Shown here piece by piece: positions 3,046-18,688 of a DNA stretch of 32,000 nucleotides. The position numbers were made by a program, and so were the translations under genes. How positions within the stretch are numbered: the first letter of the stretch is position 1; every line of letters starts with the position of its first letter. The notes under the pieces were generated by a model that was not told the DNA's origin, did no database searches, and was given only the letters and a program-made list of their open reading frames with translations. The DNA comes from Patescibacteria group bacterium (GTDB lineage: Bacteria > Patescibacteriota > Patescibacteriia > 2-01-FULL-39-33): assembly GCA_041662745.1 (NCBI GenBank), contig JBAZRV010000001.1, forward strand, positions 30,001-62,000, read 5' to 3'.

Positions 3046-3775
3046 AAATCAAATCAGCCCACAGGGCGTAACCCCTGTCCGAGGGGTGGAATCTGTCTGC
3101 CGAGTATGCACCGGAAACGGCCTTCTGATCGGCGCTAAACGGCTTAGCCGAGATGGTATGCAAATCAATCAGCTTCACTCCGGTTTCTTGCGCCACTTCG
3201 GCGATAACGGCATTATATTCTTTAAGCTCTAATTCAAAATACCAATTGTAAGGCGGCAGGACCAAGTCCCGGGCGCCCAAGTAGGGCAAATTAATCAGAT
3301 ATATCTGCGCCTGGGCGATTTGTTGCAATGACCTGACCGCGGTCTCCAGATTGCTTTTGAACTTTTCTCGCGGCACAAAATTATGCATGTCATTGGTGCC
3401 GATGAATAAAGTAATCATTTGGGGTTGCATCTGTCCGGCAGCAATGACTTGGCCGGTCAGAATATCAAAGCTGGTGGCCCCGGGTACGCCTAAATTATTG
3501 ACAATGACTTGCACTCCGGAAGCGGCGGCTATTTTCTGCGCCAAAGCCCCGGGCAAAGAAGTAGCGGCGGAAGTCGCTCCCACGCCGGCTGTCAATGAAT
3601 CGCCTATGGCCACATAAGTCATCCTTTGCCCTTTTTCTTCAGTCATATAGTTTTTTTCTGCCGGCGGACTGATTAATTCAAATTTTGAATAAATATAAGC
3701 ATAAGCGCGATTGAGATAGATGCCGATCAGCGCGACAATTATGATAATAATGATTAAATTCTTATGCTTAGCCAT
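3029..3775 (-). CDS. SGNH/GDSL hydrolase-type esterase with N-terminal membrane anchor
   Basis: 248-aa ORF with an N-terminal TM helix (NLIIIIIIVALIGIYL). Block I is GDS (VAIGDSLTAGVG), block III is GTND (LFIGTNDMH) and block V is DxxH (DRFHPSD). Confidence 0.85.
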   Translation of the reverse strand: MAKHKNLIIIIIIVALIGIYLNRAYAYIYSKFELISPPAEKNYMTEEKGQRMTYVAIGDSLTAGVGATSAATSLPGALAQKIAAASGVQVIVNNLGVPGATSFDILTGQVIAAGQMQPQMITLFIGTNDMHNFVPREKFKSNLETAVRSLQQIAQAQIYLINLPYLGARDLVLPPYNWYFELELKEYNAVIAEVAQETGVKLIDLHTISAKPFSADQKAVSGAYSADRFHPSDRGYALWADLIYDIIQ

Positions 3776-3824
3776 GGCTTTATCTTAGCAAATTGGAGGC
3801 AAAAAAACAAAAACTCCGGCAATT

Positions 3825-3851
3825 AAAAACACCGTCCCCGAGAGGACGGTG
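3825..3851 (-). terminator. intrinsic terminator closing the orphan two-gene unit
   Basis: On the minus strand, caccgtcc-tctcgg-ggacggtg is followed by TTTTT. It begins 13 nt after the stop at 3864. Confidence 0.75.
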
Positions 3852-3863
3852 CTACAAACGATC

Positions 3864-4517
3864 TTAATAAGACGAGGCCAAAAGCCGCAGATTCTCCAAA
3901 GCTTTGTCGCGCCTTGAAATAAACTCCGCTTTGGATTGAGGTGATAACCCCGCCTCCAAATCGGCATTCTTATAAATACACGATAGCGCTGTAAAAACCA
4001 AACAAAGAATAGAAATATCGGCTTTACAACTACCGCCAGAACGGTTAATACTGTCAATAATCTCTTGTGTTTCCCGCTCAATTCTCCTTAGTACATCTTG
4101 CCGGATAGCTACGTCATGATTGACCACCGCTAATTCCAAATCATCCCTCGGATCATTAGTACAATAAGCGCGAATAAGCATGATATCGGAAACAATCACT
4201 AATTCTTCCAGGGTGCGAGCCGTTTTAATTAGAGAATCTATAATGACTCGTTCCCAATCCAGACCCGAATAAACCTTCCGATAAAGCTTGTGCCAATCGG
4301 AAAAAGAACTGGCCGTTTCCATTAGGCGACGCTTAAGCGGATCGGTAAACAAATCAAAATTGCTGAAATCTGAATGAAAATGCTCCAAGTATTTTTCCAG
4401 ATCGGCGAAGGTCAAATTCTTTAAGAAACTTTCAATTGACATAAAACGCTTCTCGGCAATCTTGTGAGCCATTCTCAGGCCAACCAAATCAACCAAACAT
4501 TTAACGCTCATAGCCAT
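3864..4517 (-). CDS. hypothetical protein (217 aa, predicted all-helical, cytoplasmic)
   Basis: The start was moved from 4547 to the ATG at 4517 (MAMSVKCL...), which is preceded by AAAGGAG with a 7-nt spacer. No family recognised. ORF 3785..4081 on another frame overlaps it and is discounted. Confidence 0.6.
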   Translation of the reverse strand: MAMSVKCLVDLVGLRMAHKIAEKRFMSIESFLKNLTFADLEKYLEHFHSDFSNFDLFTDPLKRRLMETASSFSDWHKLYRKVYSGLDWERVIIDSLIKTARTLEELVIVSDIMLIRAYCTNDPRDDLELAVVNHDVAIRQDVLRRIERETQEIIDSINRSGGSCKADISILCLVFTALSCIYKNADLEAGLSPQSKAEFISRRDKALENLRLLASSY

Positions 4518-4564
4518 CAATAATCTCCTTTTGTTGCTAGGAAGCATTCGCTGTCCTCAATGTG

Positions 4565-5545
4565 CTAACACGCCGGAGCAAAACCCACAGCCGAACCGAA
4601 ATTTGCCCTGATCAAAATCCGATATGCTTCACAAAAAACTTGAGACTCCGGTGAATCGGAAGCGCAACTGGAAGCGCTTCTGAAAGAAGCCGACAAACAA
4701 AAATCAATACGCCTCTCCAGTGGAACATCGCAAGGACGTTCATGGCTCTCGCCGGGCGAATATTCGGTACCGGGACAATTAATGCCCAGACAGCCGGGCT
4801 GGCCGATAAGATCCGGATGAGTCAGTAAAGCGGCGGCCATAACATAATGACATAAGCCGAATTCACTTTCACCATACCGTTCCTTTACATATCTAATGCT
4901 GGCCCCGCGCCATCTCATGCCGAAGTTAACCGGAATTACCAGATAATCACCGAGCAGATACTCATCCAGTTGCCCCAAAAAACCGCGAGTCCTGGCGGTA
5001 GGACGAAGATGGCCATTGTATTTGACTTCTTCAACAAAACGTCCAAGAGGCATAATCTTATTAAGCAACCCAAATAATTCTCCCGCCGCCTTATAATACC
5101 CGCCCAAACAGGAAAACTTGGGAACAACGAGATCAAGCTCAAGCTTCTGGGGCAACTCCCGTTCCTCAAGATGCCTGTTTCCGCAAAGCTCATAGACATG
5201 CGAAGCATCTAAATTCCCGGTCAACTCCAGTCGGCGCCAAAAGTTAAGCTGTTCTCTTACTGAGCGTCGCCGAAAATTACGCGGGTAAGTGAAATTTGAA
5301 TCCACTCGTTCATTGGCATGGGGCAGTTTATCGGCATCAGGATCTTCATAACGCCCCTCAATCAAACCCTGCAAGGGCTTCTTAACCGATTTTGGATCAA
5401 TGGTTCTTTCCCTAATGCGACGATGCAAATCCGCCGTTTGGTCAAAAACTTTCAGCCGAGCCATTTCCCGCTCAAGCTCCCTACTTTTCTCTTCCGCCTC
5501 TTTCAACCGTCGTCCTGCTTCGTCTGCGACATTTTTTTCTGTCAT
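4565..5545 (-). CDS. hypothetical protein (326 aa) with charged coiled-coil N-terminus and Cys-rich C-terminus
   Basis: AGGAG lies 8 nt upstream of the ATG. The N-terminus is RRLKEAEEKSRELEREMARLK. The last 60 aa or so contain multiple Cys (CLGINCPG...PCDV...FCLS...SCAS...FCEA...APAC). No family recognised. Confidence 0.65.
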   Translation of the reverse strand: MTEKNVADEAGRRLKEAEEKSRELEREMARLKVFDQTADLHRRIRERTIDPKSVKKPLQGLIEGRYEDPDADKLPHANERVDSNFTYPRNFRRRSVREQLNFWRRLELTGNLDASHVYELCGNRHLEERELPQKLELDLVVPKFSCLGGYYKAAGELFGLLNKIMPLGRFVEEVKYNGHLRPTARTRGFLGQLDEYLLGDYLVIPVNFGMRWRGASIRYVKERYGESEFGLCHYVMAAALLTHPDLIGQPGCLGINCPGTEYSPGESHERPCDVPLERRIDFCLSASFRSASSCASDSPESQVFCEAYRILIRANFGSAVGFAPAC

Positions 5546-5633
5546 GACGAATTCTCCTTTGTCAAAGTCCTTGCCCTGTTGGCACTATGCCGCTTGGGCC
5601 AAGCGAAATCCTAAACCATTAGGATATCAAATA

Positions 5634-5727: not shown

Positions 5728-8700
5728 CTAAAGCTTTTCAATTTTTATCTTTACTTTTTCGCCGTTAATACTGACTGCCTTGGCATCGCTATCAGCCTCT
5801 ATGATTTCCTGAGTTAGGGTGGATTTTTTCAATTCCTCATTAAGCAGAGCATCGCCAAAGACTTTTTTAACCGTTTCTCCTTCACTCTGCCAGCTCAGTT
5901 TAATCCGGTCTTTAATGGTCAAGCCGGCATCCTTGCGCAAGGTATTAACAGTCCTGACAAATTCGCGCCAAGCGCCTTCAACTTTCAATTCATCAGTCAG
6001 ATCGGTATCCAATTCCAATTTAATCTCCGTCCCGCCGGCAAACTCTAAATTCTTAAGATTCAGTTTGTCCTTAATCAAATTTATGAGTTGCTGTTTATAT
6101 GGTTCTTCGGCTAACGCCAAACCGAAAACCGTGGCCTTGTTAAGCGGTTGCCTGATTTTTATCTTAGCTTCGGCGCGGGCGGCTAAGCCCAACTCTTCTA
6201 TGGCAGCGGCCAAACCCATCTGCTCTTTCAATTTGTCGCTGTAAGCGCTCGCCTCCTTGCTACCGTATAATTCCTTATCAATTTCCGGCCAACTCTCCAA
6301 ATGGACCGATTCCTTCTCACCGCCGATCTGTTTGTAAACGTATTCGGCGACAAAGGGCGTAAAGGGTGCCATGATCTTGGATAATTCCAGCAGGACGAGC
6401 CGGAAAGTGGCGATGGCTTGATTCTTGTCCGCTTCATCATCGCCCTTCAAGCGTTCGCGCGACGATTGCAGCCAACGAGTGGAGAACTCGTCTATGAATT
6501 CAGCCAAGGGGCGGGTGGCGCGGGGCAAATCATAAGCTTCCATGTTCTTGGTCACTTCCAAAAGCAACAGATTTAACTTTACCGACAGCCATTTATCCAA
6601 AATATTATCGCTTTTAACCGGCTCGGACGCCGCTGTCCCAGAAACTTCGTATAACTTATAAAAACTCAGAATATTATTCAACAGCATGGTAACCTTTTGC
6701 ATTGCTTCTTTGACGGCGTCATCGGAAAAATTCAAATTTTCCGCAGTCATGACTGGCGCGGTCAAAAGATAAAAACGCAAGGCGTCGGCGCCGTATTTGT
6801 CCATGATTATTTCCGGTTCCGTGTAATTCTGCAAGCGCTTAGACATCTTCTTGCCGTCTTCAGCCAGAACAATGCCGTTGACAATGACGTTTTTGAACGC
6901 TTCGCTGTCTCGTACGGCTGTAGCAATGATGTGGAGATAATAAAACCAAGCGCGCGTCTGATCCACGCCTTCGGCAATAAATTGCGCCGGAAAACCGGCC
7001 AGGAATTTCTCCTGATTCTCAAACGGATAATGCTGTTGGGCGTAAGGCATGGAACCGGAATCAAACCAAGTGTCCAGCACATCGGGAATTCTCGTCATTT
7101 TTTGGCCGCATTCTTGACAAACAATCTGCCATTGGTCCACGAAATGCTTATGCAAATCGGTTATCTTCTGTTTTATCTCCAGCACTTGCCCTTTCTCCAC
7201 CGCCAAATCCCTAAAGGTTTGGCTCGGTTCGTAGCCGTAAAGCCTGCCCAAAAACGACTTGATCGTGTCTTCGTGGCTGACCAATAAAATATTCTTGCCT
7301 TCGTACTTTTCATTCAATTCTTGATACAGGGCCAGGGTCCGCTCCGTCACTTGCCGAACGCTTTCACCGGCCGGATAAGCATTATCCCAATCGCTTTTCC
7401 ATTTGGCGATAACCGCCTTGGCTTTATCGTCAACATCGGATTGTTCTTCCAGCTCGCCGGCATCAAGCTCGTTCAAGCGGGCGTCAAAAACCAGCTCTGC
7501 GCCCGTAACTTCGGCGATGAGCTGAGCCGTTTCCTTGGCGCGCAAGACTTCGGAAGAAACGATCAAATCAATTTTTTTATCTTTCAATCCGTCGGCGGCA
7601 ACTTTAATTTGTTCTCGGCCGTTAGCTGTCAATGAGTAAACACCCAAACCGCTGCTGAACACGTGTTTAATATTCTTTTCCGCTTCGCCATGCCTGATGG
7701 CGAAAAAATTATTCCGATCTATTTTCAGCTCTTCCAGCTCAGCCACGCTGCCGATGACTTTTATTTCACCGCACTGGCACCGCCACAGCGGAATGACGCT
7801 GGCCCAAAATCGCTGACGGGAAATTGACCAGTCGCGCGCGCCCTCCAGCCATTTGCCGAAACGGCCTTCCTTAATATGCGCCGGCGACCAATTAATATTC
7901 TTGGCGGTTTCCAACGCCTTCGCTTTGATGTCTGTTACTTTGACAAACCAGGAACTGGTGGCGTAATTGATCAGCGGCGTATCGCACCGCCAGCAATGCG
8001 GGTAGCTATGTTCGTATTCGGCGCTGGCAAAAAGCAGTTTGTGTCTGTCCAGATATTCAATGACTTTTTTGTCGGTTGCCTTGGTATCTTCCGCCGGCTT
8101 GACATTCAGGCCGGCAAAATCAGCCACTTCATCCTTAAAATTCCCTGCCAAGGTCACATTCTGAATGAAAGCCAAATTTTCTTCTTGGCCCAATTGCATA
8201 TCTTCTTCACCATAAGCCGGAGCGATATGCACTACGCCGGTGCCATCATCGGTGGTGACGAAATCAGCGGCTACGATAGTGTATAAATTTTCTTTATTGG
8301 GCAAATCTTTGTCTAAATAATATGGGAATAACGGCTTATACTCTTTGCCAATCAATTCTGAACCCTTGAACTTGTCCAAAACCCGGACTTGCTGGCCGGC
8401 AAAAACTTTCTCCAAAAGCGCTTCAGCCAAAATCAATTTTTCACCGGGTCTGACCACTGACATCGTAGCAGTTATCTTATTCCCGCCTTCAACATCATAA
8501 GCTTCCATTTTCTTATTGGCGCCAGAACTGACGACAACATAGTCAATATCTTTTCCCACCGCAAGCGCCACATTGCCCGGCAGAGTCCAAGGCGTGGTCG
8601 TCCAAGCCAAAACATAAGCGCCCGGCTCATCAACCAACTCAAATTTAGCCGTCACCGACAAATCCTTAATATCCTTATAACCCTCACTAACCTCCTGCTG

Positions 8701-9267
8701 GCTCAGGGTTGTTTCGCATCTGGGACAGATATGCATGGACTTATAACCTTCATAAACCAAACCCTTGTCATACAATTCCTTAAACACCCACCAAATTGAT
8801 TCCATGTAAGACAAATCCATGGTCTTGTAAGAATCGTCCATATCCGCCCAGCGGCCGAAACGGGCGATGGTCTTTTTCCATTCCTCAACATAAACCAAAA
8901 CCTTGCTGCGGCAGTATTCGTTGAATTTACCAATGCCGTAGTTTTCAATATCTTTCTTGCTCTTAAAGCCCAGTTCTTTCTCCACGATGTTTTCAATGGG
9001 CAGGCCATGGCAATCCCAACCCCAGCGACGCTCCACATAACGGCCGCGCATCGTCCAAAATCGCGGCACCACGTCTTTCATCAGACTGGCGACCATATGG
9101 CCGTAATGCGGAGTACCGGTGGCAAACGGCGGGCCGTCATAAAAACTGTAAGCCTCGCCAGCCCTGGTCTGTTCCAGTGATTTCTCAAAAATTTTATTAT
9201 CCGTCCAAAATTTTTGGATCTCTCGCTCTCTTTCCGGAATCGGATTAACCCACTTTTTTTCTTCCAT
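5728..9267 (-). CDS. ileS: isoleucyl-tRNA synthetase (type 2-like) carrying an inserted histidine-phosphatase domain
   Basis: Motifs present: class I HIGH variant TPHYGH, KMSKR, CP1 editing motif TTTPWTLPGN, and WFDSGSMPYAQQHYPFEN. The start was set at ATG 9267 (MEEKKWVNPIPERE) because the 26 upstream codons of the ORF overlap the leader terminator. See findings for the insert at 7159..7725. Confidence 0.95.
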   Translation of the reverse strand: MEEKKWVNPIPEREREIQKFWTDNKIFEKSLEQTRAGEAYSFYDGPPFATGTPHYGHMVASLMKDVVPRFWTMRGRYVERRWGWDCHGLPIENIVEKELGFKSKKDIENYGIGKFNEYCRSKVLVYVEEWKKTIARFGRWADMDDSYKTMDLSYMESIWWVFKELYDKGLVYEGYKSMHICPRCETTLSQQEVSEGYKDIKDLSVTAKFELVDEPGAYVLAWTTTPWTLPGNVALAVGKDIDYVVVSSGANKKMEAYDVEGGNKITATMSVVRPGEKLILAEALLEKVFAGQQVRVLDKFKGSELIGKEYKPLFPYYLDKDLPNKENLYTIVAADFVTTDDGTGVVHIAPAYGEEDMQLGQEENLAFIQNVTLAGNFKDEVADFAGLNVKPAEDTKATDKKVIEYLDRHKLLFASAEYEHSYPHCWRCDTPLINYATSSWFVKVTDIKAKALETAKNINWSPAHIKEGRFGKWLEGARDWSISRQRFWASVIPLWRCQCGEIKVIGSVAELEELKIDRNNFFAIRHGEAEKNIKHVFSSGLGVYSLTANGREQIKVAADGLKDKKIDLIVSSEVLRAKETAQLIAEVTGAELVFDARLNELDAGELEEQSDVDDKAKAVIAKWKSDWDNAYPAGESVRQVTERTLALYQELNEKYEGKNILLVSHEDTIKSFLGRLYGYEPSQTFRDLAVEKGQVLEIKQKITDLHKHFVDQWQIVCQECGQKMTRIPDVLDTWFDSGSMPYAQQHYPFENQEKFLAGFPAQFIAEGVDQTRAWFYYLHIIATAVRDSEAFKNVIVNGIVLAEDGKKMSKRLQNYTEPEIIMDKYGADALRFYLLTAPVMTAENLNFSDDAVKEAMQKVTMLLNNILSFYKLYEVSGTAASEPVKSDNILDKWLSVKLNLLLLEVTKNMEAYDLPRATRPLAEFIDEFSTRWLQSSRERLKGDDEADKNQAIATFRLVLLELSKIMAPFTPFVAEYVYKQIGGEKESVHLESWPEIDKELYGSKEASAYSDKLKEQMGLAAAIEELGLAARAEAKIKIRQPLNKATVFGLALAEEPYKQQLINLIKDKLNLKNLEFAGGTEIKLELDTDLTDELKVEGAWREFVRTVNTLRKDAGLTIKDRIKLSWQSEGETVKKVFGDALLNEELKKSTLTQEIIEADSDAKAVSINGEKVKIKIEKL

Positions 9268-9485
9268 ACTGTTATTTATGATTACTGTTTGTTTAAAATA
9301 AAAAACACCAACTTGGCTGACCGGAGCCCTCGCGGGCGGTACCATCTCGGTGTTTGACTTGATTTCAGCTGTTACGGGCTGACCGGCCGATTTTACTTTC
9401 CGTTACAAACGGGTTTCTTTCGGCAGCTCCAATGGTGATAACCACTGTCGGGCGCTGTTATTGATTGTTTAACTTGCTTATACGA
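9268..9485 (-). promoter_or_regulatory. T-box riboswitch leader upstream of ileS
   Basis: The minus strand reads ACCGAGAUGGUACCGCCC-GCGA-GGGCUCCGGU. This is a T-box-like GGUACCGC core in which a UGGU bulge is flanked by ACCG/CGGU and GCCC/GGGC helices capped by a GNRA loop. A competing terminator (AACACC...GGUGUU plus a U-run, 9293-9354) overlaps it. AUC triplets are present at 9389-9391 and 9361-9363. Confidence 0.65.
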
Positions 9486-9492
9486 TATTTTC

Positions 9493-9521
9493 AATATAAC
9501 AAAAATCAAATAAAAAGTCAA
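9493..9521 (-). promoter_or_regulatory. sigma70-type promoter of the ileS leader
   Basis: On the minus strand: TTGACT (9521-9516), 17-nt spacer, TATATT (9498-9493). Confidence 0.6.
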
Positions 9522-9556
9522 AAATAAAAGTCGCCACTGCCGATGGCCTGGCGACT
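9521..9556 (-). terminator. intrinsic terminator after the 180-aa secreted protein gene
   Basis: On the minus strand, agtcgcca-(12 nt)-tggcgact is an 8-bp stem followed by a T-run. Confidence 0.7.
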
Positions 9557-9580
9557 GAACTTACTCGGACTGAAATTATA

Positions 9581-10123
9581 TTACTTACGTGTCTGCGTAT
9601 CAGCATTAACCCGTAATTCGGCGTTGCGGGTCATAACCGAACCGGTGTCGTTGTCCACATAACAAAAATAATAGTCGTCATCTTCAAGGCTGATTTGCGG
9701 CCAGCTAAGGGTTGGAGATTGCGCCGTGGGATTATCAACCGGCAGATAAATCTTGCACAACGGGCAATGATTGCGTCGGCACCATTGATAGCGCAGGTTA
9801 TTGCCCACGGCCACCACGGTCAAAGACACCGCCTGTCCTTCATTGACAGTGAGATCATCGGGTTGGCGGATGATCATCGGCGGCATTTCCATCTCACCCC
9901 CCCCTGCGACGCCGCAACAAAAGCCGTCTTCAGTGCCGACTTCAGGGCAGGCATGATAAGCGCCGCTATTATAAAATTGGATCACCCGCAATAATTCCGC
10001 AAGCGAGATTATGCCGTCCCGATCAACATCGGCGTCATGAAAATTATTTATCTCCGCCACTATTGGAAACAAACCGACGGCTAAGATAAAAACCAAGATC
10101 AGCAACAAGGCCCTGCATCTCAT
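9581..10123 (-). CDS. secreted protein with dockerin/EF-hand-like motif and one Ig-like (I-set-like) domain
   Basis: AGGAGG RBS. Signal peptide MRCRALLLILVFILAVGLFPIVAE. DADVDRDGIISLAELLRVIQFYN is a Ca-binding loop-helix pattern. The Ig-like module runs PPMIIRQPDDLTVNEGQAVSL...YQW...DDDYYFCYV...AELRVN. Confidence 0.7.
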   Translation of the reverse strand: MRCRALLLILVFILAVGLFPIVAEINNFHDADVDRDGIISLAELLRVIQFYNSGAYHACPEVGTEDGFCCGVAGGGEMEMPPMIIRQPDDLTVNEGQAVSLTVVAVGNNLRYQWCRRNHCPLCKIYLPVDNPTAQSPTLSWPQISLEDDDYYFCYVDNDTGSVMTRNAELRVNADTQTRK

Positions 10124-10161
10124 CTTATGTTTTCCTCCTTCTTGTTTTCAACCGTTTGAAT

Positions 10162-10488
10162 TCATTCAGGTTTAAATTGTTGGTTAAACCGATCAAAATT
10201 AGGATAGTAGGCGTCAAATAAAACCCTTTGACCGCAAATCTGAGCAACATGACCGCACCAAATTCTTTCAGGAATTTGCTCCAAATATTTCGCCATTAAT
10301 TTACGCAAAAGCATTTTATCGGCCGTACTGGGCTGGAAACGCACCGGATTTGATCCTTTGAATCCATAATAACGGTAATACTCAATCTCTTCCCGCACAT
10401 AATCTTCCAAAAAAAGCAGAGCTGACTTAAACATTATCTGAATCATTTCTTCGGCGGATACCTGTTTAAAGCCCAAACTATGTGCCAT
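10162..10488 (-). CDS. hypothetical protein (108 aa)
   Basis: The start was moved to the ATG at 10488 (MAHSLGFKQ...), preceded by AGGAG with a 7-nt spacer. It lies 38 nt upstream of the secreted Ig-like gene, so the two are probably co-transcribed. No family recognised. Confidence 0.55.
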   Translation of the reverse strand: MAHSLGFKQVSAEEMIQIMFKSALLFLEDYVREEIEYYRYYGFKGSNPVRFQPSTADKMLLRKLMAKYLEQIPERIWCGHVAQICGQRVLFDAYYPNFDRFNQQFKPE

Positions 10489-10676
10489 TGCCGTTCTCCT
10501 TATCCTATTGCAAAAGAACTCTGAATTCATTTGAATACGCTATCATATCAATAGTTAATTGTCAATTAAAGGATTGCTCGTCCGGCAGGGCTTATGGGGC
10601 GATTTTGGAAAAATTAAGTGACGAGGATTAGAACTATTTAAAAAGTTCTTGATTCGTATAAACTGTGAATAACTAT

Positions 10677-10705
10677 TTGACGTTTTTACCGGCATTTGTT
10701 AATAT
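10677..10705 (+). promoter_or_regulatory. candidate promoter of the NrtR-like gene cluster
   Basis: TTGACG (10677-10682), 17-nt spacer, TAATAT (10700-10705), about 30 nt upstream of the ATG at 10737. Confidence 0.5.
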
Positions 10706-10736
10706 GCGTATATAAGACACAAACTAAAAATTATTT

Positions 10737-11414
10737 ATGAATTTGGGCAATAGCAAATACCAAAATCAATATCTGCATGCTGACGCCGCAGTCTTTACGG
10801 TCGAAGACCGTAAGGTCAAGTTGCTTTTGGTGCGCCGTTCCCGCAAACCCTACATTGGACAGTGGTCGCTGCCGGGTGGAGGAATTTACCGCACAGAATC
10901 AGCTAAACAGGCGATAAAAAGGGAATTGGCATACAAGACTGGATTGAAAAATCTCTATCTGGAAGAATTCGGCGTCTTTAGTGAGCCGAAACGCGATCCA
11001 CGCGGCCGCATCATCTCAATCGCCTTTCTCGCCTTACTAGATAAGAACAAAGTGTCGCTATTGCAGAAAACACCCAAAACCATGGGCGCGAAGTGGTTCG
11101 ACATAAAAAAGTTGCCGCCTATAAAATGGGACCACAAAAAAATCACCAACTTGGCTATTGCAAAGCTGCGCAAGCGACTTTTGGAATCCAACATTGCTTG
11201 CCGGCTGTTGCCGAGATACTTCACGCTGCCAGAATTGCATAAGACTTATGAAATCATCCTTGGTAAACAACTCGATCGTCGCAATTTCCGCAAGAAATTC
11301 CTCAAGCTGGGCTTGATTATCAAGACAGAAAACAAGGAACGCGGCAGTAGGAACCGTCCGGCCGCCTATTACAAGTTCAAGACCGAACAGCATCAGGATA
11401 TTTCCATCTTTTAA
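10737..11414 (+). CDS. nrtR: NrtR-like protein: Nudix domain with degenerate Nudix box fused to a C-terminal winged-helix domain
   Basis: The Nudix-like box GGGIYRTESAKQAIKRELAYKTGL lacks the full REUxEE signature. The C-terminal segment FTLPELHKTYEIILGKQLDRRNFRKKFLKLGLI...RPAAYYKF matches my recollection of the NrtR wHTH region. Confidence 0.8.
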   Translation: MNLGNSKYQNQYLHADAAVFTVEDRKVKLLLVRRSRKPYIGQWSLPGGGIYRTESAKQAIKRELAYKTGLKNLYLEEFGVFSEPKRDPRGRIISIAFLALLDKNKVSLLQKTPKTMGAKWFDIKKLPPIKWDHKKITNLAIAKLRKRLLESNIACRLLPRYFTLPELHKTYEIILGKQLDRRNFRKKFLKLGLIIKTENKERGSRNRPAAYYKFKTEQHQDISIF

Positions 11415-11503
11415 ACCTTCAACGCTTATTGAGACTATGACCCACGAGTGCATCATTTGGCAACTTAGTTTGAGTATATTTTACACAAAAAATAATCATC
11501 ATT

Positions 11504-12682
11504 ATGCCCAGTTTCCATCTCTGCAATAACAACGTCTGCACCCGGCTCTATCTTTTCGGCCAGGATTTAAAAAGCCTACTGTTGCAAAACTGCTGGCAGG
11601 AATTGCCTCTGAACCAAGCCGACCTTATTTTCGTCAATTCATGTTCTTTCCTAACAAAGACCGAAAATTTTTTTCTGGCTAAGATTGAAAAATTAGACAA
11701 ATCCAAAACCGCCAACCAGAAAATCATCGTCTTTGGCTGCTTGCCGCATACTTCTCTCGAAAAATTAAGAATGGTCTTCTCCGGCGAAATCATGCCGGCC
11801 AGGGACCTGGCGCAAGCAGCCGACCTGCTTGGTTTAAAATCAATAAACAGTAATATTGGCTATTCGATTCCGCGCCAATTGCGAACTTTAGATCGTTTCA
11901 ATTATTTCATCAATAAATACCTGATTCGCAATGCCTATTTGGGCTATCTGTCCGGCGAACCGGCCTATTACCTCAATATCGCCCGAGGCTGCCTCGGCAA
12001 ATGCACATATTGCTCAGAAAAAACAGCTCGCGGACCCCTTTCCAGTTGGCCGATTGCCGATATCGCCGCCTCTTTCCGAACCGGCTTGAAGCAAGGCTAT
12101 AGGATATTCTCCCTTAATGCCGATGATGTCGGCGTTTTCGGCTGGGATCGGAAGGAAAACATCGCCGGATTGCTCAATGAACTGCTATCAGCTGACGGTG
12201 ATTTTAAAATTATCCTGACAGAATTCAATCCCTGGGGTTTGATCAAGCATCAGCAAGAACTACTGTCGCTTCTGGCTTCAAAAAAAATAGCTCATATTAC
12301 CATTCCCCTCCAATCCGGCTCGGATAAAATCCTCAAGCTGATGAGGCGACCTTATTCCATTCTGACAGTCATGGACATTATAAGACTTATTAGAAATAAT
12401 AATCCAAACATCATCATCAATACCCATCTGATCGCCGGTTTTCCGGGAGAAACCGAAGAGGATTTCAGACTGACACTTGATCTCGTCAAGTCTGGCCTGT
12501 TTGACAAGGTCAAAGTCTTTCCCTATTCCGATCGACCGCAAGTGCCGAGCTACGACTTGCCGTATAAAATTCCGCCTCGAATAATGGCTGAACGCTCCCG
12601 ACGGCTGAGATATGAAACCTTCAGGCAGGCGCTACTGAAGCTAAACCTTAGAAATATATTGCTCAATCTGCAAAAAATTTAA
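11504..12682 (+). CDS. radical SAM enzyme of the methylthiotransferase (MiaB/RimO-like) family, no TRAM domain evident
   Basis: CxxxCxxC motif at ARGCLGKCTYC. MTTase-like core blocks HITIPLQSGSDKILKLMRRPY and LIAGFPGETEEDFRLTLDLV...VFPYSDRP. The N-terminal domain has Cys in LCNNNVC, NSC and FGC, resembling the UPF0004 second-cluster domain. The protein ends about 40 aa after the core. Confidence 0.8.
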   Translation: MPSFHLCNNNVCTRLYLFGQDLKSLLLQNCWQELPLNQADLIFVNSCSFLTKTENFFLAKIEKLDKSKTANQKIIVFGCLPHTSLEKLRMVFSGEIMPARDLAQAADLLGLKSINSNIGYSIPRQLRTLDRFNYFINKYLIRNAYLGYLSGEPAYYLNIARGCLGKCTYCSEKTARGPLSSWPIADIAASFRTGLKQGYRIFSLNADDVGVFGWDRKENIAGLLNELLSADGDFKIILTEFNPWGLIKHQQELLSLLASKKIAHITIPLQSGSDKILKLMRRPYSILTVMDIIRLIRNNNPNIIINTHLIAGFPGETEEDFRLTLDLVKSGLFDKVKVFPYSDRPQVPSYDLPYKIPPRIMAERSRRLRYETFRQALLKLNLRNILLNLQKI

Positions 12683-12685
12683 TTT

Positions 12686-13258
12686 ATGACCATTCTAATC
12701 TGTGGACAATCAGGCACAGGAAAAACGACGCTGGCCAAAATTATGGCAGATAAGCTTAATGCTGTCTGTATTTCGACTGACAGCATTAAGTTGTTTGCGC
12801 GTGCCAGCGGCTACGGCAATGCCTTTACCTATACCGACAGCCACGGCGCCTGGTCTAAGTTTGGTCGGAAGAATCGCCAGAATATCATCCGCGGCTTCAA
12901 AGCTCACAATCGCGTGCTCGAACAGCTCATTACAGACATCATCAAAGAAGCCGACGGTATTTCCCAACACTTAATCGTCGAAGGCGTTCAAATTACGCCT
13001 AAAATGTTAAAAGAGTTGCCAGGTGAAAAAATGGCTATCTATCTAGATTTACCGTGCAAAAAAACTCACTTCAAAATTTTCGACTATAAGAATTCGAGAC
13101 GCAAAATCGCCAACACTTTGTGGCGCGCCAATTACGATGCTATCCGACTGATTAATGACTATACTAAGGATGCCTACCGCCGAGCCGGATTCAGCATTAT
13201 TAGGTCAGCTCCAGCCGAGCTTGTGGCCGATCGGTTGCTAACAAAAATCCGCATATGA
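12686..13258 (+). CDS. P-loop kinase, 2-phosphoglycerate-kinase-like (COG2074-like)
   Basis: Walker A GQSGTGKTT. ISTDSIKLFAR and IIRGF...LIVEGVQITP resemble the 2PGK-family blocks (STDxIR, EGVH). The start is 3 nt after the radical SAM stop, and the stop overlaps the next start (ATGA). Confidence 0.65.
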   Translation: MTILICGQSGTGKTTLAKIMADKLNAVCISTDSIKLFARASGYGNAFTYTDSHGAWSKFGRKNRQNIIRGFKAHNRVLEQLITDIIKEADGISQHLIVEGVQITPKMLKELPGEKMAIYLDLPCKKTHFKIFDYKNSRRKIANTLWRANYDAIRLINDYTKDAYRRAGFSIIRSAPAELVADRLLTKIRI

Positions 13259-14118
13259 ACGACTACCGAGATTGCGATTATTTCATTGATGACTTGGGCG
13301 ACATTCATATTGTGCGCGGCTACTTGCATCCAGTCAACTTAGTGCGGACCAAGCTGATATACAAAAAAACTTCCGCAGGCGATCGCAGCCGCCGCAACGG
13401 AGATTGCTACGAAAAAAATCAGATCGACCAAATTATCTATCTCCCGGCCAGCCGTATAAAAGAGTATTTCCGGCCATTAAATAATCCCATAAAGACGAGT
13501 TTGGAGGGTCTCTGGCTGGACATGTATAACGAGCTGAATAATTACGTCGCTGCAGACGACATTGGAATTTTCGGCTCCAGCCTATTGGATTTTCCAGTCA
13601 CCCGCGATGTCGACTTTATTATTTATGGCTTGGACAATTGCCGACGGATAAAAAGCAATATAGAAACGATCAAAATGGCGATGGCAGTGCCGGGAATCTC
13701 AACCAATCACATCAATTATCAATCGCAAAAATTTTCGGCATCGCATGAACCGGGCAATAACACCCTAGCCAAGACTTTAGCCAACAAGTGGTGCACGGTG
13801 CAAATCGCGCCGGGAGTTTCCAACACGTTGATGTTCGGCTACAAGGCGGAAGAAATCGGCGACTGGCTAAATGCCGATGACCGGCCGGGGAAAGACATTG
13901 TTGTGGAGGGTGAGGTCCTAGATGATATCCGCACCAACTTCAGCCCGAGGATTTTCAACGTACGGGATCGCCGTGGTATAATTTTTACAGTAAAAACATA
14001 TTATTGGGCTTATCATGCCTGTGTGCGCATCGGCGACATAGTTACGATTGCGGGCAGATTAGTCGACCGCAACATAATTCTATTGAATAATTTCAATCAC
14101 GGCATCGCAATTAGATAA
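13255..14118 (+). CDS. predicted nucleotidyltransferase (Pol-beta superfamily motif) with beta-rich, possibly OB-like C-terminal region
   Basis: The GS-x10-DxD pattern (IGIFGSSLLDFPVTRDVDFIIYG) is the minimal NTase signature. The C-terminus VVEGEVLDD...FTVKTYYWAY...GDIVTIAGRLVDRNIILLN looks like a small beta-barrel. The ATGA overlap indicates translational coupling with the kinase gene. Confidence 0.6.
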   Translation: MNDYRDCDYFIDDLGDIHIVRGYLHPVNLVRTKLIYKKTSAGDRSRRNGDCYEKNQIDQIIYLPASRIKEYFRPLNNPIKTSLEGLWLDMYNELNNYVAADDIGIFGSSLLDFPVTRDVDFIIYGLDNCRRIKSNIETIKMAMAVPGISTNHINYQSQKFSASHEPGNNTLAKTLANKWCTVQIAPGVSNTLMFGYKAEEIGDWLNADDRPGKDIVVEGEVLDDIRTNFSPRIFNVRDRRGIIFTVKTYYWAYHACVRIGDIVTIAGRLVDRNIILLNNFNHGIAIR

Positions 14119-14161
14119 CAAGCTTGGTTATATAATATCCGGTTTATTTCCAGCTTATTCC

Positions 14162-14266
14162 AAAACCCTCCTCGTCCCGCCTGCCTGCCGGTAGGCAGGT
14201 CCGCCCTAACCATAAATCAACAAAAAAGACCTAAATTCATAGGTCTTTTTATGTTACTTCATTAAG
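14162..14266 (+). repeat. direct repeat copy A (structured intergenic element containing a terminator)
   Basis: It aligns with 15061..15170 at roughly 90 percent identity by hand alignment. It contains hairpin cctgcct-gccggt-aggcagg and terminator agaccta-aattca-taggtct plus a T-run. Confidence 0.85.
14222..14250 (+). terminator. intrinsic terminator of the NrtR-like cluster (inside repeat copy A)
   Basis: aaaaaagaccta-aattca-taggtcttttt. Confidence 0.75.
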
Positions 14267-14337
14267 TGAAGGATAATAGACGATATTAGAACTTGTTTAG
14301 TCAAAATTGATAAAAATTATTTCGTCCCAAATTTAAG

Positions 14338-14366
14338 TTGACAAAAATAACTAGTTGCGATAACAT
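14338..14366 (+). promoter_or_regulatory. candidate promoter of the cassette gene
   Basis: TTGACA (14338-14343), 17-nt spacer, TAACAT (14361-14366). Confidence 0.45.
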
Positions 14367-14423
14367 ATCGTCAATAAACAAAAAATGCACATTAAAATAT
14401 AAACAACCAAAAAGGAGAAAGAA

Positions 14424-14993
14424 ATGCCATTGTTTAATATTGATCGCCCTAAGGCAGAAAGAATTAAATCAAGGTTGGTTGCCATACTACCAACCAAGAA
14501 GCAGAAAAGAGAAATATTCCTAGCCACCGCCAGAAGAGTGGTCGGTCGAAAAGTAATCGAATGGAATTCTTGTTGTGGCACCTACGGCCAGGGCGGGCCG
14601 GGATTCTTGGGTTTTAAGCTTGAAAAAAATTTCAGATACCACGAAGAATGGTTGATCTTAAGAATTTGGGGTGCGGATAATTGGTTGCTGGTCAACGGTC
14701 TATGGTTTGCGGCCGATCCCGATCAATATGATATTCAAGTCCCGCTTTATTCAAATTATTATGAAAAAGAATGGGATAATTTTTCCGAACTAATTATAAG
14801 CGAAAGAATAGAGACATTCGAGATTGCTGAAAAAACTATGACAATTACCATTGGATCTACTGTTATTTCGCTTGGCGATAATCCGGAAGAGCGGCCCAGA
14901 TATGCCGGTAACGGCGATCAACGCAAACTCGATGAAGCTGATGACCTACGAGAGGCCTGGATACTTTCTCCTTATGCCTGGGTTGAAATATAA
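14424..14993 (+). CDS. hypothetical protein (189 aa), Trp-rich, bracketed by direct repeats
   Basis: AAAGGAGAAAG RBS 4-5 nt before the ATG. No signal peptide and no family recognised. It has its own promoter and terminator. Confidence 0.65.
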   Translation: MPLFNIDRPKAERIKSRLVAILPTKKQKREIFLATARRVVGRKVIEWNSCCGTYGQGGPGFLGFKLEKNFRYHEEWLILRIWGADNWLLVNGLWFAADPDQYDIQVPLYSNYYEKEWDNFSELIISERIETFEIAEKTMTITIGSTVISLGDNPEERPRYAGNGDQRKLDEADDLREAWILSPYAWVEI

Positions 14994-15060
14994 TTGTTAC
15001 ACTAAGAGACACATTAACCAATGCCGAGGACAAGGATGTCCCCGGCGTTTTCATTTTTCT

Positions 15061-15170
15061 AAAATCCTCCTCGTCCCGCCTGCCTGCCGGTAGGTAGGCA
15101 GGTCTGGGCTAACCGCAAACCAACAAAAAAAGACCTAAATTCATAGGTCTTTTTATATTATTTCATTAGG
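15061..15170 (+). repeat. direct repeat copy B
   Basis: Same element as 14162..14266, with a 4-nt tagg duplication in hairpin 1, one extra A, and about 10 substitutions. Confidence 0.85.
15125..15154. terminator. bidirectional intrinsic terminator (inside repeat copy B)
   Basis: aaaaaaagaccta-aattca-taggtcttttt sits between the convergent cassette gene and the ferredoxin gene. Confidence 0.75.
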
Positions 15171-15189
15171 CGGGCAACCTTATATTGGA

Positions 15190-15387
15190 TTACTCTCCCC
15201 AGGAAATCGCCTGTGTTGGACAAGCACCGATAGCCTCGTCAATCTTGGCTTTTTCCGCTTCATAATCCGCCTCCAAAACTGTGGCAATCATCCTGCCGTT
15301 TGCTTCGGCCACCTTAAAAACTGCCGGGCAAATAGCCTCGCAAGTGCCGCAAGCGATGCACGCTTCGCTGACTGATGGTTTTGACAT
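15190..15387 (-). CDS. small single-cluster ferredoxin
   Basis: 65 aa. CIACGTCEAICP plus a distal GACP gives the CxxCxxC...CP pattern. Confidence 0.85.
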   Translation of the reverse strand: MSKPSVSEACIACGTCEAICPAVFKVAEANGRMIATVLEADYEAEKAKIDEAIGACPTQAISWGE

Positions 15388-15401
15388 AGTAATTTTATTA
15401 T

Positions 15402-15782
15402 TTATTTTTTGATAAGCTCTTTGACTTTTTGCGACAAAGTTCCGGGAGTAAAATCTGATTTGACCAGATAGCCGTTGACTTTCAACCCGGCCGCGCGGTC
15501 CTTATCCTTCTTTTGGGTCAAGTTGCTCCAAATATAAACTTTGAGTTTTGATAATTCGCTGTCTTTTTTGATTTGGTCAAACAAAGTCCAGCCGTCCAAT
15601 TCCGGCATCATGATATCCAACAGCACCAAGTCCGGCTTAAGTCGTTTTAACTCTTCCAAAGCTTTGGTGCTGTCGCCGATGATCGTCGCGTCAATGCCTT
15701 CCATTTGCATTTTCAAATGGTAAATTTCAGCCAAATCCGGCTCATCTTCAATCAAGGCGACTTTGTATTTTAATTCCGGCAT
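15402..15782 (-). CDS. stand-alone response regulator receiver (CheY-like, REC only)
   Basis: 126 aa. VALIEDEPD...VLLDIMMPELDG is the phospho-acceptor Asp context. There is no output domain. Confidence 0.9.
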   Translation of the reverse strand: MPELKYKVALIEDEPDLAEIYHLKMQMEGIDATIIGDSTKALEELKRLKPDLVLLDIMMPELDGWTLFDQIKKDSELSKLKVYIWSNLTQKKDKDRAAGLKVNGYLVKSDFTPGTLSQKVKELIKK

Positions 15783-15876
15783 ATTATTAATTCCAATTTC
15801 TAAAAATTATTAATTAGCCCTTTAATTATTCCTGTTCCCTGCCCCCAATCCTCAATATTTTGACTTTATTATTATA

Positions 15877-17583
15877 CTACATCCGCTCCAAAGTTTCTAT
15901 GCCCAGCAAATCAAGACCGTTAGTCAGCACTTGCCGGACGCCGGCGATTAGGGCCAACCGAGCCGACCGCAACTTATCTTCGGAATTAAGTATGGGGACT
16001 TCCTGATAGTAGGAAGAAAAAATCTTAGCCAGATCAAATAGGTATTTGCCAAGCGTGCTGGGTTCAAATTCCTGAGCCGCTTCATTTATCGCTTGAGGGA
16101 ATTCTGCCAATTTGATCAGTAATTCTTTTTCTGCCGGATCAGCCAAAAGCGCATAATCCACGGTTTGAGAAATACTCTTATTCTTCCTTAAAATGCTATT
16201 AATGCGAGTTACGGTGTATTGCAGATACGGACCGGAATAACCGTCAAAAGACAGGGCCTCCTGAGGATTAAAAACAATTACGCTGTTCTTCCCCACTTTA
16301 AGCATGCTGAATTTTATGGCGGCCAAAGCGATCTTCTCGGCCGTAGAGGCGATCTCCGCCTTGCCCCAGTCGCTATGGCGCTTGGCCGTTTCCGCTTGCG
16401 CCAAAGCGGCCATCTCGGCCAGAAGATCCTCAAACAAAACAACATTGCCTTGGCGTGAAGCCATGGCTCCTTCGGGCAGGGTCACAAACTCATAGGCGAT
16501 ATGCTTGGTTTTCTTATGGAAGCCCATTATCTCCAAGGTTTTAAAAAATTGCTGAAAATAAAAGCTCTGGCGGCTGTCTACCACCACGTAAGAAGCATCT
16601 ATCTTGTATTTATCAAATTTTAATTTAGCCAAAGCCAGCTCCTTGGTGGAATAAAGAGAGGTGCCGTCGGATTTAAGCAGTAAAAACTGCTTCAGACCGT
16701 ATTGTTCCAGATCAATAATTATCGCGCCTTCTGATTTTTCAGCGACGCCTTGGGCCAACAGCTCGGCAACGATTTTCTTGCCCGGTTTCTCCACTTCGCT
16801 CTCAAAGAAAAATTTATCAAATTTTATGCCCAAAATTTTATAAATGCCGTCAAACTCCTGAAGCGACCAAGCGCGGGTTTTTTTCCATAAGGCCGTCCAG
16901 TACTTATCACCGGCCTCTAATTTTTTCTGCACTACTTGGGCTTCTTGCCGGTATTTTTCGCTGGCCTCGGTTTTTTGCACCGCTTCGCTGTAAATCCTGC
17001 CCAGATATTGCCCCTTGTGTTCTGCCGGCTCCGGATCTTTTTTGTGGAATTTATCCAAAGCCCAAAGGCACTTGGCCACATGGGAACCGATATCGCCGAT
17101 ATAATTAACGGCAATGACTTTTTGGCCGACAAACCGATACAGATTAACCAAAGCCGAACCTAAGACAGCATTGCGCAAATGGCCGACATGGAATTCCTTA
17201 TGGGTATTCGGTTGGGAATATTCAATCATCACTTTCTCTTTCTTCCAAGGCAAACGTCCGTATTTATCCTCTTTTTTCTTAACCTCGGAAATCACCGCCT
17301 TGGCCAGATGTTTCTCGTTCAGAAAAAAATTAAGATACGGCCCGAAATTGCTGACTGACTTCACTCCGGTCGGCAATTTTATTTTCTGTTTTATTTCCAA
17401 TGCCACCTGATTGGGCGAGATGCGCAAAAGTTTGGTCAAATAAAAACAGGGTACGGCCAAATCGCCCATGGCCGCTTCCGGCGGACGGGTAATTTCCAAT
17501 TGGCTGATATCAAGTTCCTGACCGACGGCTTTTTCCACGGCGGACAAAATTTCCTTTTGCAGCTTGTTTATGAAATATGGCAT
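15877..17583 (-). CDS. argS: arginyl-tRNA synthetase
   Basis: 568 aa. HIGH-region HVGHLRN, typical ArgRS length, and a C-terminal anticodon-binding region ending ...GIETLERM. Confidence 0.95.
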   Translation of the reverse strand: MPYFINKLQKEILSAVEKAVGQELDISQLEITRPPEAAMGDLAVPCFYLTKLLRISPNQVALEIKQKIKLPTGVKSVSNFGPYLNFFLNEKHLAKAVISEVKKKEDKYGRLPWKKEKVMIEYSQPNTHKEFHVGHLRNAVLGSALVNLYRFVGQKVIAVNYIGDIGSHVAKCLWALDKFHKKDPEPAEHKGQYLGRIYSEAVQKTEASEKYRQEAQVVQKKLEAGDKYWTALWKKTRAWSLQEFDGIYKILGIKFDKFFFESEVEKPGKKIVAELLAQGVAEKSEGAIIIDLEQYGLKQFLLLKSDGTSLYSTKELALAKLKFDKYKIDASYVVVDSRQSFYFQQFFKTLEIMGFHKKTKHIAYEFVTLPEGAMASRQGNVVLFEDLLAEMAALAQAETAKRHSDWGKAEIASTAEKIALAAIKFSMLKVGKNSVIVFNPQEALSFDGYSGPYLQYTVTRINSILRKNKSISQTVDYALLADPAEKELLIKLAEFPQAINEAAQEFEPSTLGKYLFDLAKIFSSYYQEVPILNSEDKLRSARLALIAGVRQVLTNGLDLLGIETLERM

Positions 17584-17625
17584 ATTTGCTTGCTTTACGA
17601 TAACATAAAACCATTAAAATGACAA

Positions 17626-17658
17626 TAAAAAAAGCGCCGACCGCTGGGGATTGGCGCT
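17626..17658 (-). terminator. intrinsic terminator after the 271-aa orphan gene
   Basis: On the minus strand, agcgcc-(14 nt)-ggcgct is followed by TTTTTTT. Confidence 0.7.
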
Positions 17659-17685
17659 GTTTAATTAAAGTGCTTATATTACTCT

Positions 17686-18501: not shown

Positions 18502-18637
18502 AGTGCCTCCTTGGCGGCTTGCTCCGCCCGGTTTGAAACAAAGACCACTGATATTTTCCGCTATGTTTTCAAATTCTTTGCGTTCTTGTTGGTTATATTG
18601 CCGTTTATCAAAAAATTTTAAATGTTCAACTGCGAAT

Positions 18638-18666: not shown

Positions 18667-18688
18667 GAACTTGCCAATATTAATAAAA

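Follow-up and report, generated by a model that had tools for sequence, protein, structure and literature searches.

A histidine phosphatase domain nested in the isoleucyl-tRNA synthetase of a Patescibacteria bacterium: predicted internalised form of a synthetase-partner phosphatase

The subject of this work is ileS, the gene for isoleucyl-tRNA synthetase (IleRS), on a 32,000-nt stretch of a Patescibacteria genome (GenBank assembly GCA_041662745.1, contig JBAZRV010000001.1, positions 30,001 to 62,000; hereafter, the window). Its reading frame (5728..9267, minus strand) carries a 189-residue insert at 7159..7725 that belongs to branch 1 of the phosphoglycerate mutase (PGAM)-like histidine phosphatases, as judged by Pfam, by its catalytic residues and by AlphaFold2 (AF2) modelling with Foldseek. 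Comparison with related genomes indicates that the window holds the internalised form of a phosphatase dedicated to partnering a tRNA synthetase in Patescibacteria. We are highly confident that an intact, in-frame phosphatase sits within this IleRS and that its lineage is a dedicated genomic partner of IleRS that has been internalised repeatedly. The full explanation, which adds a working partnership of the two enzymes and a class of substrate, is given a probability of about 0.55.

The host synthetase

The ileS coding sequence specifies a type-2 IleRS of 1179 residues plus a stop, identified through the NCBIfam ileS equivalog TIGR00392 and through its 100% identity with a public protein, P0001, from a Patescibacteria metagenome-assembled genome. 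Read from its first ATG, the minus-strand open reading frame (ORF) is longer (5728..9345, 1205 residues). Translation probably does not begin at the in-frame ATG at 9345; the downstream position 9267 is preferred because homologues begin at MEEKKW, the methionine of which lies there. TIGR00392 matches with 858.3 bits against a cutoff of 621.4, in two stretches that flank the insert, and Pfam finds tRNA-synt_1 in two stretches as well, the first ending at residue 546 of the 1205-residue ORF, together with Anticodon_1 and DUF5915. The frame is free of stops and frameshifts.

Pfam, alignment and motifs assign the N-terminal part of the enzyme (7726..9267, minus strand) to the first half of the Rossmann fold, the connective peptide 1 (CP1) editing domain and the first half of the zinc knuckle. 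On the same grounds, the C-terminal part (5728..7158, minus strand) comprises the second half of the knuckle, the second half of the Rossmann fold, the anticodon-binding domain and DUF5915. The HIGH-type motif, HYGH, is encoded at 9108..9097, the KMSKS-type motif, KMSKR, at 6849..6835, and the CP1 motif WTTTPWT at 8604..8584, while the two knuckle halves read C-Q-C (7779..7771) and C-Q-E-C (7119..7108). These signature motifs and the knuckle cysteines are invariant or nearly so in an alignment of 83 sequences. The full-length AF2 model has a predicted local distance difference test (pLDDT) score of 85.7 and a predicted template modelling (pTM) score of 0.77, and its best Foldseek matches are IleRS2 of P. 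megaterium (8C8V), yeast IleRS (8WND) and the T. thermophilus enzyme (1ILE), all ahead of type-1 structures. Together with the C-terminal DUF5915 domain, these structural matches identify the type-2 (eukaryote-like) architecture. No second IleRS is encoded within the 32-kb window, and the insert-less ileS genes of relatives are syntenic orthologues of this gene, which is predicted to specify the housekeeping type-2 IleRS of a bacterium of the Patescibacteria, also called the candidate phyla radiation (CPR).

The inserted phosphatase domain

Within the 1205-residue ORF, the Pfam family His_Phos_1 (PF00300) matches residues 549-721, between the two tRNA-synt_1 stretches, with E=1.2e-37 and 129.9 bits against a cutoff of 21.7. 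The 189 residues encoded at 7159..7725 score still higher when searched on their own (E=3.2e-39, 135.1 bits), far more than chance would give. The catalytic residues occur in family order, namely R11-H12-G13, N18, R62, E86 and H151 in insert numbering, and the corresponding codons lie at 7695..7687 for R-H-G (the histidine, residue 526 of the 1179-residue protein, at 7692..7690), 7674..7672 for the asparagine, 7542..7540 for the arginine, 7470..7468 for the glutamate and 7275..7273 for the distal histidine. The domain is placed in frame between Cys498/Cys500 and Cys718/Cys721, cysteines that are invariant in the 83-sequence alignment.

Structure prediction agrees with the profile searches. Inside the full-length model the insert reaches a pLDDT of 90-97, and modelled alone it has a pLDDT of 94.6 and a pTM of 0.91; the linkers on both sides are short and confidently modelled. 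The insert model has the alpha/beta/alpha PGAM fold, with template modelling (TM) scores of 0.76-0.85 to CobC, HFP, GpgP, PspA and cofactor-dependent phosphoglycerate mutase (dPGM). Selection points the same way, since the ratio of nonsynonymous to synonymous substitution rates (dN/dS) is 0.07-0.15 for the insert and 0.06-0.09 for the synthetase backbone, values that come from the two closest relatives and are approximate because dS is near 1. The insert thus appears to be under purifying selection as strong as that on the backbone. Taken together, sequence and model describe a complete, catalytically intact branch-1 histidine phosphatase domain nested in the catalytic core of IleRS.

The starting point for this analysis was a sequence-only reading of the window, which had placed a PGAM-type domain in frame at 7159-7725 of IleRS. 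The Pfam and TIGR00392 matches bear this out, as the two tRNA-synt_1 stretches do for its domain boundaries. Every motif and codon position it gave, for the RHG histidine, the distal histidine, HYGH and KMSKR, was correct, as was its account of an uninterrupted frame with intact flanking catalytic motifs. Its further proposal, that a functional module had been grafted into the zinc-binding connective region, gains support from the position at the knuckle, the conserved catalytic residues, the dN/dS values, the confidently predicted fold and the intact IleRS motifs.

By its scores, the insert is a member of His_Phos_1 but of no characterised subfamily. It falls below the equivalog cutoffs for CobC (TIGR03162, 99.1 vs 162.9 bits; NF011580, 93.2 vs 250 bits), for cofactor-dependent phosphoglycerate mutase (TIGR01258, 39.1 vs 81.7 bits; NF038349, 95.2 vs 225 bits) and for SixA (TIGR00249, 33.5 vs 74.5 bits, in a match that spans residues 6-75 only). 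The NCBIfam equivalogs PspA and GpmB are likewise scored below their cutoffs. The neighbours in sequence and fold (CobC, PspA, the riboflavin phosphatase HFP, GpgP, Rv3214 and dPGM) are chemically diverse, and the fold search, which returned a broad mix of small-molecule phosphatases, did not narrow the substrate.

Occurrence of the insert among related synthetases

The 120 closest IleRS proteins in a collection of 5.8 billion proteins fall into two states. Sixty-eight have exactly nine residues between "...GSVAEL" and "DLHKH..." (consensus E-K-x-S-G-x-K-I-T), and in the remaining 52 this gap spans 187-213 residues. The short linker that the earlier reading had given for ordinary IleRS is therefore real. 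That reading had also allowed that a similarly long insert lacking phosphatase motifs might be standard for this subclass; what was found is either nine residues or 187-213 residues with the catalytic set. Across the 52 inserts, the RHG, Asn, Arg, Glu and distal His positions are invariant or at least 96% conserved, while the inserts as a whole average about 34% identity, with a mean p-distance of 0.66 against 0.38 for the backbone.

The species representatives with a fused IleRS bear the names Wolfebacteria, Pacebacteria, Paceibacterota, Saccharibacteria, Zambryskibacteria and Nomurabacteria; L006 and L008 are the fused loci from Saccharibacteria. The scan of the genome collection was dominated by one generic IleRS motif and returned mostly ordinary IleRS2, so that nine fused loci and one operon locus were informative. 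An exhaustive, profile-free comparison of the insert with 1.8 billion cluster representatives gave 1,249 matches below 1e-10, and 67 of the best 150 were embedded in class Ia synthetases. The earlier suggestion to ask how widely the fusion occurs thus has its answer in the 52 of 120 closest IleRS and in these searches, which indicate that the architecture is widespread in Patescibacteria rather than a one-off.

The same breadth bears on the reading of the insert as an assembly chimera, an intein-like excised element or a dead structural spacer. Only the unusual architecture speaks for this reading. The same in-frame insert recurs in more than 50 independent assemblies and in 16 further metagenomic loci, and GC content is continuous across the region, which speaks against a chimera. 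An intein would be expected to show a Hint domain, an N-terminal Cys or Ser, and a C-terminal His-Asn followed by Cys, Ser or Thr; there is no Hint or intein match in Pfam, and the junctions (...ELEEL followed by KIDRNN, and ...KQKIT followed by DLHKH) are not intein-like, which disposes of an intein or other excised element. A dead domain is contradicted by the conservation of the catalytic residues and by a dN/dS of about 0.1. As far as sequence allows, all three readings are excluded, and the chance that one of them holds is very small indeed.

Some IleRS proteins with the phosphatase at the zinc knuckle carry further domains. P0155 (residues 226-343) and P0057 (residues 323-454) have a NUDIX hydrolase domain, generic MutT/RppH-like with no equivalog, at two different positions within CP1. 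In P0163 (1066 residues), residues ~311-494 of CP1 are an in-frame REP-associated tyrosine transposase (RAYT; IS200-like Y1_Tnp) domain, which exceeds the NF047646 cutoff of 80 bits with a score of 85.8 and accompanies a phosphatase insert. Its site corresponds to residues 314/328 of the window IleRS, or approximately 8326..8284. The presence of a transposase-like domain within an essential synthetase suggests that IleRS loops tolerate or attract insertions.

The free-standing phosphatase upstream of ileS

In relatives, the same phosphatase is encoded as a gene of its own. At locus L025, a 202-residue His_Phos gene stops 4 bp before an insert-less ileS, and its product scores as high on a hidden Markov model of the inserts as the inserts themselves do. 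P0123 and P0127, free-standing relatives of the window insert, lie in the gene order argS-hisphos-ileS-recO, and L083 (the locus of P0123), L084 and L085 show the phosphatase as an operon partner.

Public metagenomes were then scanned with the tight free-standing clade, and the best 80 loci were classified. The phosphatase lies directly upstream of ileS in 52 of the 80, where the distance from its stop to the first aligned IleRS residue is -36 to +262 nt, typically about 11 nt and often overlapping, and within about 1 kb upstream in 3 more. At 16 loci it is inserted in IleRS at the zinc-knuckle site, 7 contigs end too early to tell, and 2 loci have no ileS linkage. The phosphatase is thus linked to ileS in 71 of 73 informative loci (55 upstream, 16 inserted). 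Arginyl-tRNA synthetase (ArgRS) is also part of the arrangement: of the 49 free-standing loci that are informative on this point, 47 have argS ahead of the phosphatase-ileS pair, and in 9 of the 16 inserted ones argS comes directly before ileS. Low-scoring neighbours of the free-standing phosphatases were checked and are genuine IleRS. In these data, the most frequent state of the lineage is a free-standing gene of ~190 codons in the order argS-hisphos-ileS, and the overlapping gene starts and stops suggest translational coupling.

The ileS-adjacent free-standing proteins (loci L086-L165) are strongly basic, with a median isoelectric point (pI) of 9.9 and a net charge of about +19. Per 100 residues, the net charge at these loci is +9.1 for the phosphatase, +1.2 for IleRS and +3.0 for ArgRS. 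The basicity fades in older inserts, and long-inserted phosphatases, the window's included (pI 5.3), are neutral to acidic. An independent binding surface may no longer be needed once the domain is tethered.

Two observations belong beside these loci. In the IleRS of L146 (2140..4989), which has a free-standing partner, "ECPNGH" replaces the first cysteine pair of the knuckle, "C.C", and the linker is longer. Free proteins with tandem double His_Phos domains, such as P0148, were considered as members of the system and set aside; they sit in unrelated metabolic contexts and in non-CPR genomes.

Repeated internalisation and other fusion partners

A single ancient insertion followed by vertical descent is not supported. 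When the insert is masked and a tree is built from the backbone, IleRS with and without the insert are intermixed. A second tree, of 156 phosphatase domains, shows several groups of inserted forms among the free-standing ones, and the inserted forms are monophyletic in 0 of 100 bootstraps. The insert of locus L134 is 77% identical to the free-standing proteins of L143, L145 and L146 and 62% identical to the nearest other insert, and the IleRS backbones of L134 and L146 are 44-52% identical. The trees and this case indicate that the inserted forms arose more than once.

The positions and numbers of the inserts also vary. Three insertion sites are used in IleRS, in P0001 numbering the main one at 514/703 and others at ~750 and 873/887; tandem double phosphatases also occur at the main site, and multi-copy IleRS proteins keep the catalytic residues in every copy. 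Valyl-tRNA synthetase (ValRS) is a second host, in which the same domain lies between the two halves of the homologous zinc knuckle. Of the 120 proteins most closely related to one such ValRS, 64 have it, and 57 of these 64 inserts are catalytically complete.

Three further proteins extend the range of arrangements. P0139, a ValRS fragment of 1161 residues, has four tandem His_Phos copies that are not at the knuckle (tRNA-synt_1 profile position ~198); its three complete copies retain R, H, G, R, E and H, with Ala for Asn in copy 3, and the fourth is truncated by the end of the fragment. At L149, one gene (3381..5567, plus strand) encodes ArgRS with a C-terminal phosphatase (TIGR00456 at 412 bits, plus His_Phos), and ileS comes next at 5567. 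This single case looks like an apparent read-through of an argS-hisphos gene pair. In P0181 (L170, 977..2140), likewise a single case, a phosphatase of the same lineage is C-terminal to TsaC/Sua5, the threonylcarbamoyl-AMP synthase (TIGR00057, 147 bits), so that another adenylate-forming, tRNA-modification enzyme appears as a fusion partner.

The window's own clade shows the change at close range. The nearest insert-less relatives of the window IleRS (P0006, P0008 and P0013) are 75-76% identical to it and perfectly syntenic. The closest relatives of the window insert are inserts of more distant cousins, with which it shares the junction motif KI[DN]RNNFF. A recombination tract around the insert was sought with a sliding window of 50 residues and none is visible, the flanks being nearer to the insert-less sisters right up to the junction. 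The sequences fit either gain of the insert in this clade or its loss in the sisters, and either way the change would be confined to the loop.

Proposed role and candidate substrates

Since relatives encode this phosphatase on its own, immediately before ileS, the phosphatase and the synthetase apparently work together. In the two-gene form, the phosphatase would probably dock at or near the zinc-knuckle face, and fusion would render the association permanent and stoichiometric. By the established mechanism of the histidine phosphatases, a terminal phosphoryl group would be passed to the histidine of RHG and then hydrolysed. The sequence-only reading had listed an aminoacyl-adenylate-derived product among its possible substrates, and this is chemically unlikely; the active site of the fold binds a terminal phosphate and the chemistry of the family needs a terminal phosphoryl group. 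The candidates that this chemistry leaves would be AMP, pyrophosphate (PPi) and other nucleotides, tRNA terminal phosphates, and phospho-amino acids on proteins.

Our tentative preference is for a terminal phosphate on a nucleic-acid or nucleotide ligand of the synthetase, with the tRNA acceptor end as leading candidate. There, the domain would take off either a terminal phosphate at the 2'/3' position or a pyrophosphate's end, and so make the tRNA chargeable again; AMP or PPi, as a nucleotide product, would be a close second. A tRNA ligand would be favoured by the exclusive link to tRNA-handling enzymes and by the co-insertion of NUDIX in CP1, which binds the 3' end of tRNA, and the basic free-standing partners fit binding to RNA or to an acidic partner. 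The cap resembling that of CobC, the fusion to TsaC, the range of insertion sites and the presence of several active copies would favour a small nucleotide. A more specific version of the tRNA proposal, somewhat speculative and less probable than not by a wide measure, is a repair or immunity module. A blocking 2'/3'-phosphate would be removed from the CCA end directly on the synthetase or, alternatively, the phosphate left after NUDIX had trimmed a 3'-pyrophosphate; such end blocks could stem from nuclease or pyrophosphokinase toxins.

Several points weigh against a dedicated partnership acting on tRNA ends. P0006, P0008 and P0013 have no linked phosphatase within 8 kb of ileS, so that IleRS would either manage without the partnership or draw on a phosphatase encoded elsewhere, such as that of ValRS. 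The 80 metagenomic loci all represent the closest relatives of a single query clade and lack phylogenetic independence. The acidity of the window insert does not by itself suggest RNA binding, its fold neighbours CobC, PspA, riboflavin HFP and GpgP are small-molecule phosphatases, and to our knowledge no RNA-end phosphatase of the PGAM family has been described. No equivalog model is passed, the closest being CobC, and both phosphatase activity and substrate are predictions. Finally, IleRS site 873/887 and the C-terminal ArgRS fusion lie in or near anticodon-side domains, away from the acceptor end, so precise geometry relative to the active site seems unneeded.

In a rival account, a minority possibility that we nevertheless take seriously, the domain is a nucleotide or by-product phosphatase, hydrolysing AMP to adenosine, PPi or a nucleotide phosphomonoester, and tethered to the enzymes that release them. 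A diffusible substrate would suit both the variation in site and the presence of several active copies, and every fusion partner (IleRS, ValRS, ArgRS and TsaC) splits ATP to AMP and PPi. The closest characterised relatives use nucleotide-like phosphomonoesters (alpha-ribazole-5'-phosphate for CobC; riboflavin HFP is the other), and some IleRS also hold an inserted NUDIX, likewise a domain that cleans up nucleotides. This account leaves unexplained, however, why only IleRS and ValRS act as hosts rather than all twenty synthetases, and why the free-standing forms are so basic. Being tethered, the enzyme can do nothing to reduce PPi or AMP in bulk, this branch has no established pyrophosphatase activity, and destroying AMP is costly where de novo purine synthesis is thought to be absent, as in CPR bacteria. 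A protein phosphatase that guards IleRS and ValRS, for example by removing phosphate from the serine of the KMSKS loop as a built-in immunity, is an unlikely explanation. HipA-type toxin kinases target the KMSKS-loop serine of GltX and TrpS, and PGAM-family protein phosphatases do exist (SixA, PGAM5 and Sts). Of the three places where IleRS takes up the domain, two fall in the catalytic core, within ~55-105 residues ahead of KMSKR, action in cis would bring a very high local concentration, and the patchy, recombination-like distribution is like that of resistance traits. Yet the conserved neighbourhood has no kinase gene, and we know of no kinase directed at IleRS or ValRS. Moreover, the score on the SixA model is far under its cutoff, the cap is CobC-sized, unlike the open SixA-type site, and the co-insertion of NUDIX would go unexplained.

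It is also improbable that the two enzymes are uncoupled, the phosphatase being an ordinary metabolic one (for example, phosphoglycerate-mutase- or phosphoserine-phosphatase-like) of the argS-ileS operon that was captured by permissive loops. IleRS loops do house unrelated domains (NUDIX, the RAYT transposase of P0163, and GNAT in an NCBIfam IleRS family), close relatives do without a linked phosphatase, and the insert diverges faster than the backbone by the p-distances given above. Against this stand the near-universal ileS linkage at the informative metagenomic loci, the overlapping gene starts and stops, the independent internalisation at several sites, and the parallel insertion at the homologous loop of ValRS, which lies outside that operon; nor is any metabolic equivalog threshold reached.

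Comparison with known systems

Small histidine phosphatases of the CobC/PhoE type (6NRU, 6E4B, 1H2E, 4IJ5 and 9MMH) are the best sequence and structure matches of the insert (E ~1e-16, TM 0.77-0.85), sharing its fold and catalytic set and similar to it in size, including a small cap. The insert is ~28% identical to them and has no cobalamin gene context, and its lineage, unlike CobC/PhoE, is embedded in or beside a tRNA synthetase. A branch-1 phosphatase is also joined to a second catalytic domain in PFK-2/FBPase-2 and in the mycobacterial Rv2228c-type RNase H/acid phosphatase (NF005567, among the best NCBIfam matches of the insert at 94 bits, below its cutoff of 326). Those are end-to-end fusions, whereas the window phosphatase is nested in the core of its partner with both ends anchored, and the partner is an aminoacyl-tRNA synthetase.

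Among class Ia synthetases, CP1 and the leucine-specific domain of LeuRS are likewise extra modules placed in the Rossmann-fold core without destroying it, and NF040702 ("IleRS, N-acetyltransferase domain-containing") already catalogues an IleRS with an accessory enzyme domain, GNAT. A synthetase with an accessory catalytic module is therefore a known kind of protein. The window insert differs from CP1 and the LeuRS-specific domain in coming from an unrelated hydrolase family with its own active site, and in that the phosphatase alternates between neighbouring gene and insert and is patchy among close relatives. A functional analogy may be drawn with the HD phosphoesterase domain of the E. coli CCA-adding enzyme, which has been proposed to heal 2',3'-cyclic or 3'-phosphate ends of tRNA and in which phosphatase activity is likewise joined to a tRNA 3'-end enzyme. 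This is a lead and not evidence; that domain has another fold, is metal-dependent and has another host, while the window domain would use a covalent phospho-histidine intermediate.

The sequence-only reading had taken the architecture to be undescribed. No description of a phosphatase in or next to IleRS or ValRS was found in the full-text literature, a search that most subscription journals lie outside, and a preprint on the CCA enzyme and a review on azaindanes gave no support for any functional hypothesis. What is new is the broad, undescribed association of a PGAM-type phosphatase with the Ile and Val synthetases of Patescibacteria.

Genomic neighbourhood in the window

In the window, argS (15877..17583, minus strand; Pfam) lies upstream of ileS with ~6.5 kb of other genes between. 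In the window and its close relatives, these include a response regulator (RR), a ferredoxin (Fer4) and some lineage-specific genes. By comparison with related loci, in most of which argS directly precedes the phosphatase-ileS pair, this argS is the remnant of the conserved argS-(hisphos)-ileS neighbourhood. With thrS (18984..20738, plus strand), three synthetase genes fall inside 15 kb (5728..20738), and the order thrS-argS-RR-Fer4-ileS-DsbA-POR is kept in the relatives L166, L167 and L171-L173.

A divergent gene ~1.4 kb upstream of ileS (10737..11414, plus strand) encodes an NrtR-like regulator with a NUDIX and an NrtR winged-helix domain, and is probably unrelated to the NUDIX inserts of other IleRS. 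Two predicted proteins with immunoglobulin-like domains (9581..10123 and 27330..28766, both minus strand), the second with a weak TrAA12-like match, may be surface proteins of an epibiotic bacterium.

Implications

Automated annotation misses the IleRS and ValRS of these genomes, as NCBI records call the fused proteins (P0001-P0003, P0292-P0297 and others) only "class I tRNA ligase family protein". As a result, completeness and pathway surveys of Patescibacteria may mistakenly count IleRS or ValRS as absent from such genomes.

Few enzymes have been studied as thoroughly as the aminoacyl-tRNA synthetases, and each of their idiosyncratic insertions, CP1 and the LeuRS-specific domain among them, has proved functional. 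In much of the Patescibacteria, two essential synthetases hold in their catalytic core an additional catalytic centre unrelated to their own. This group accounts for a considerable fraction of bacterial diversity and hardly lends itself to experiment. That the phosphatase is now a neighbouring gene, now an internal domain, amounts to a natural Rosetta-stone experiment for joint action, and the two-gene and fused versions, both expressible in E. coli, offer an easy experimental handle. If the repair or immunity proposal were true, the IleRS and ValRS of Patescibacteria would proofread the chemistry of the tRNA terminus as well as the amino acid, a new form of synthetase quality control. More generally, a substrate on the tRNA terminus or on the synthetase itself would mean that translation has a further, new tier of quality control or of resistance to toxins, and a nucleotide substrate would mean an unexpected metabolic coupling in organisms of minimal metabolism.

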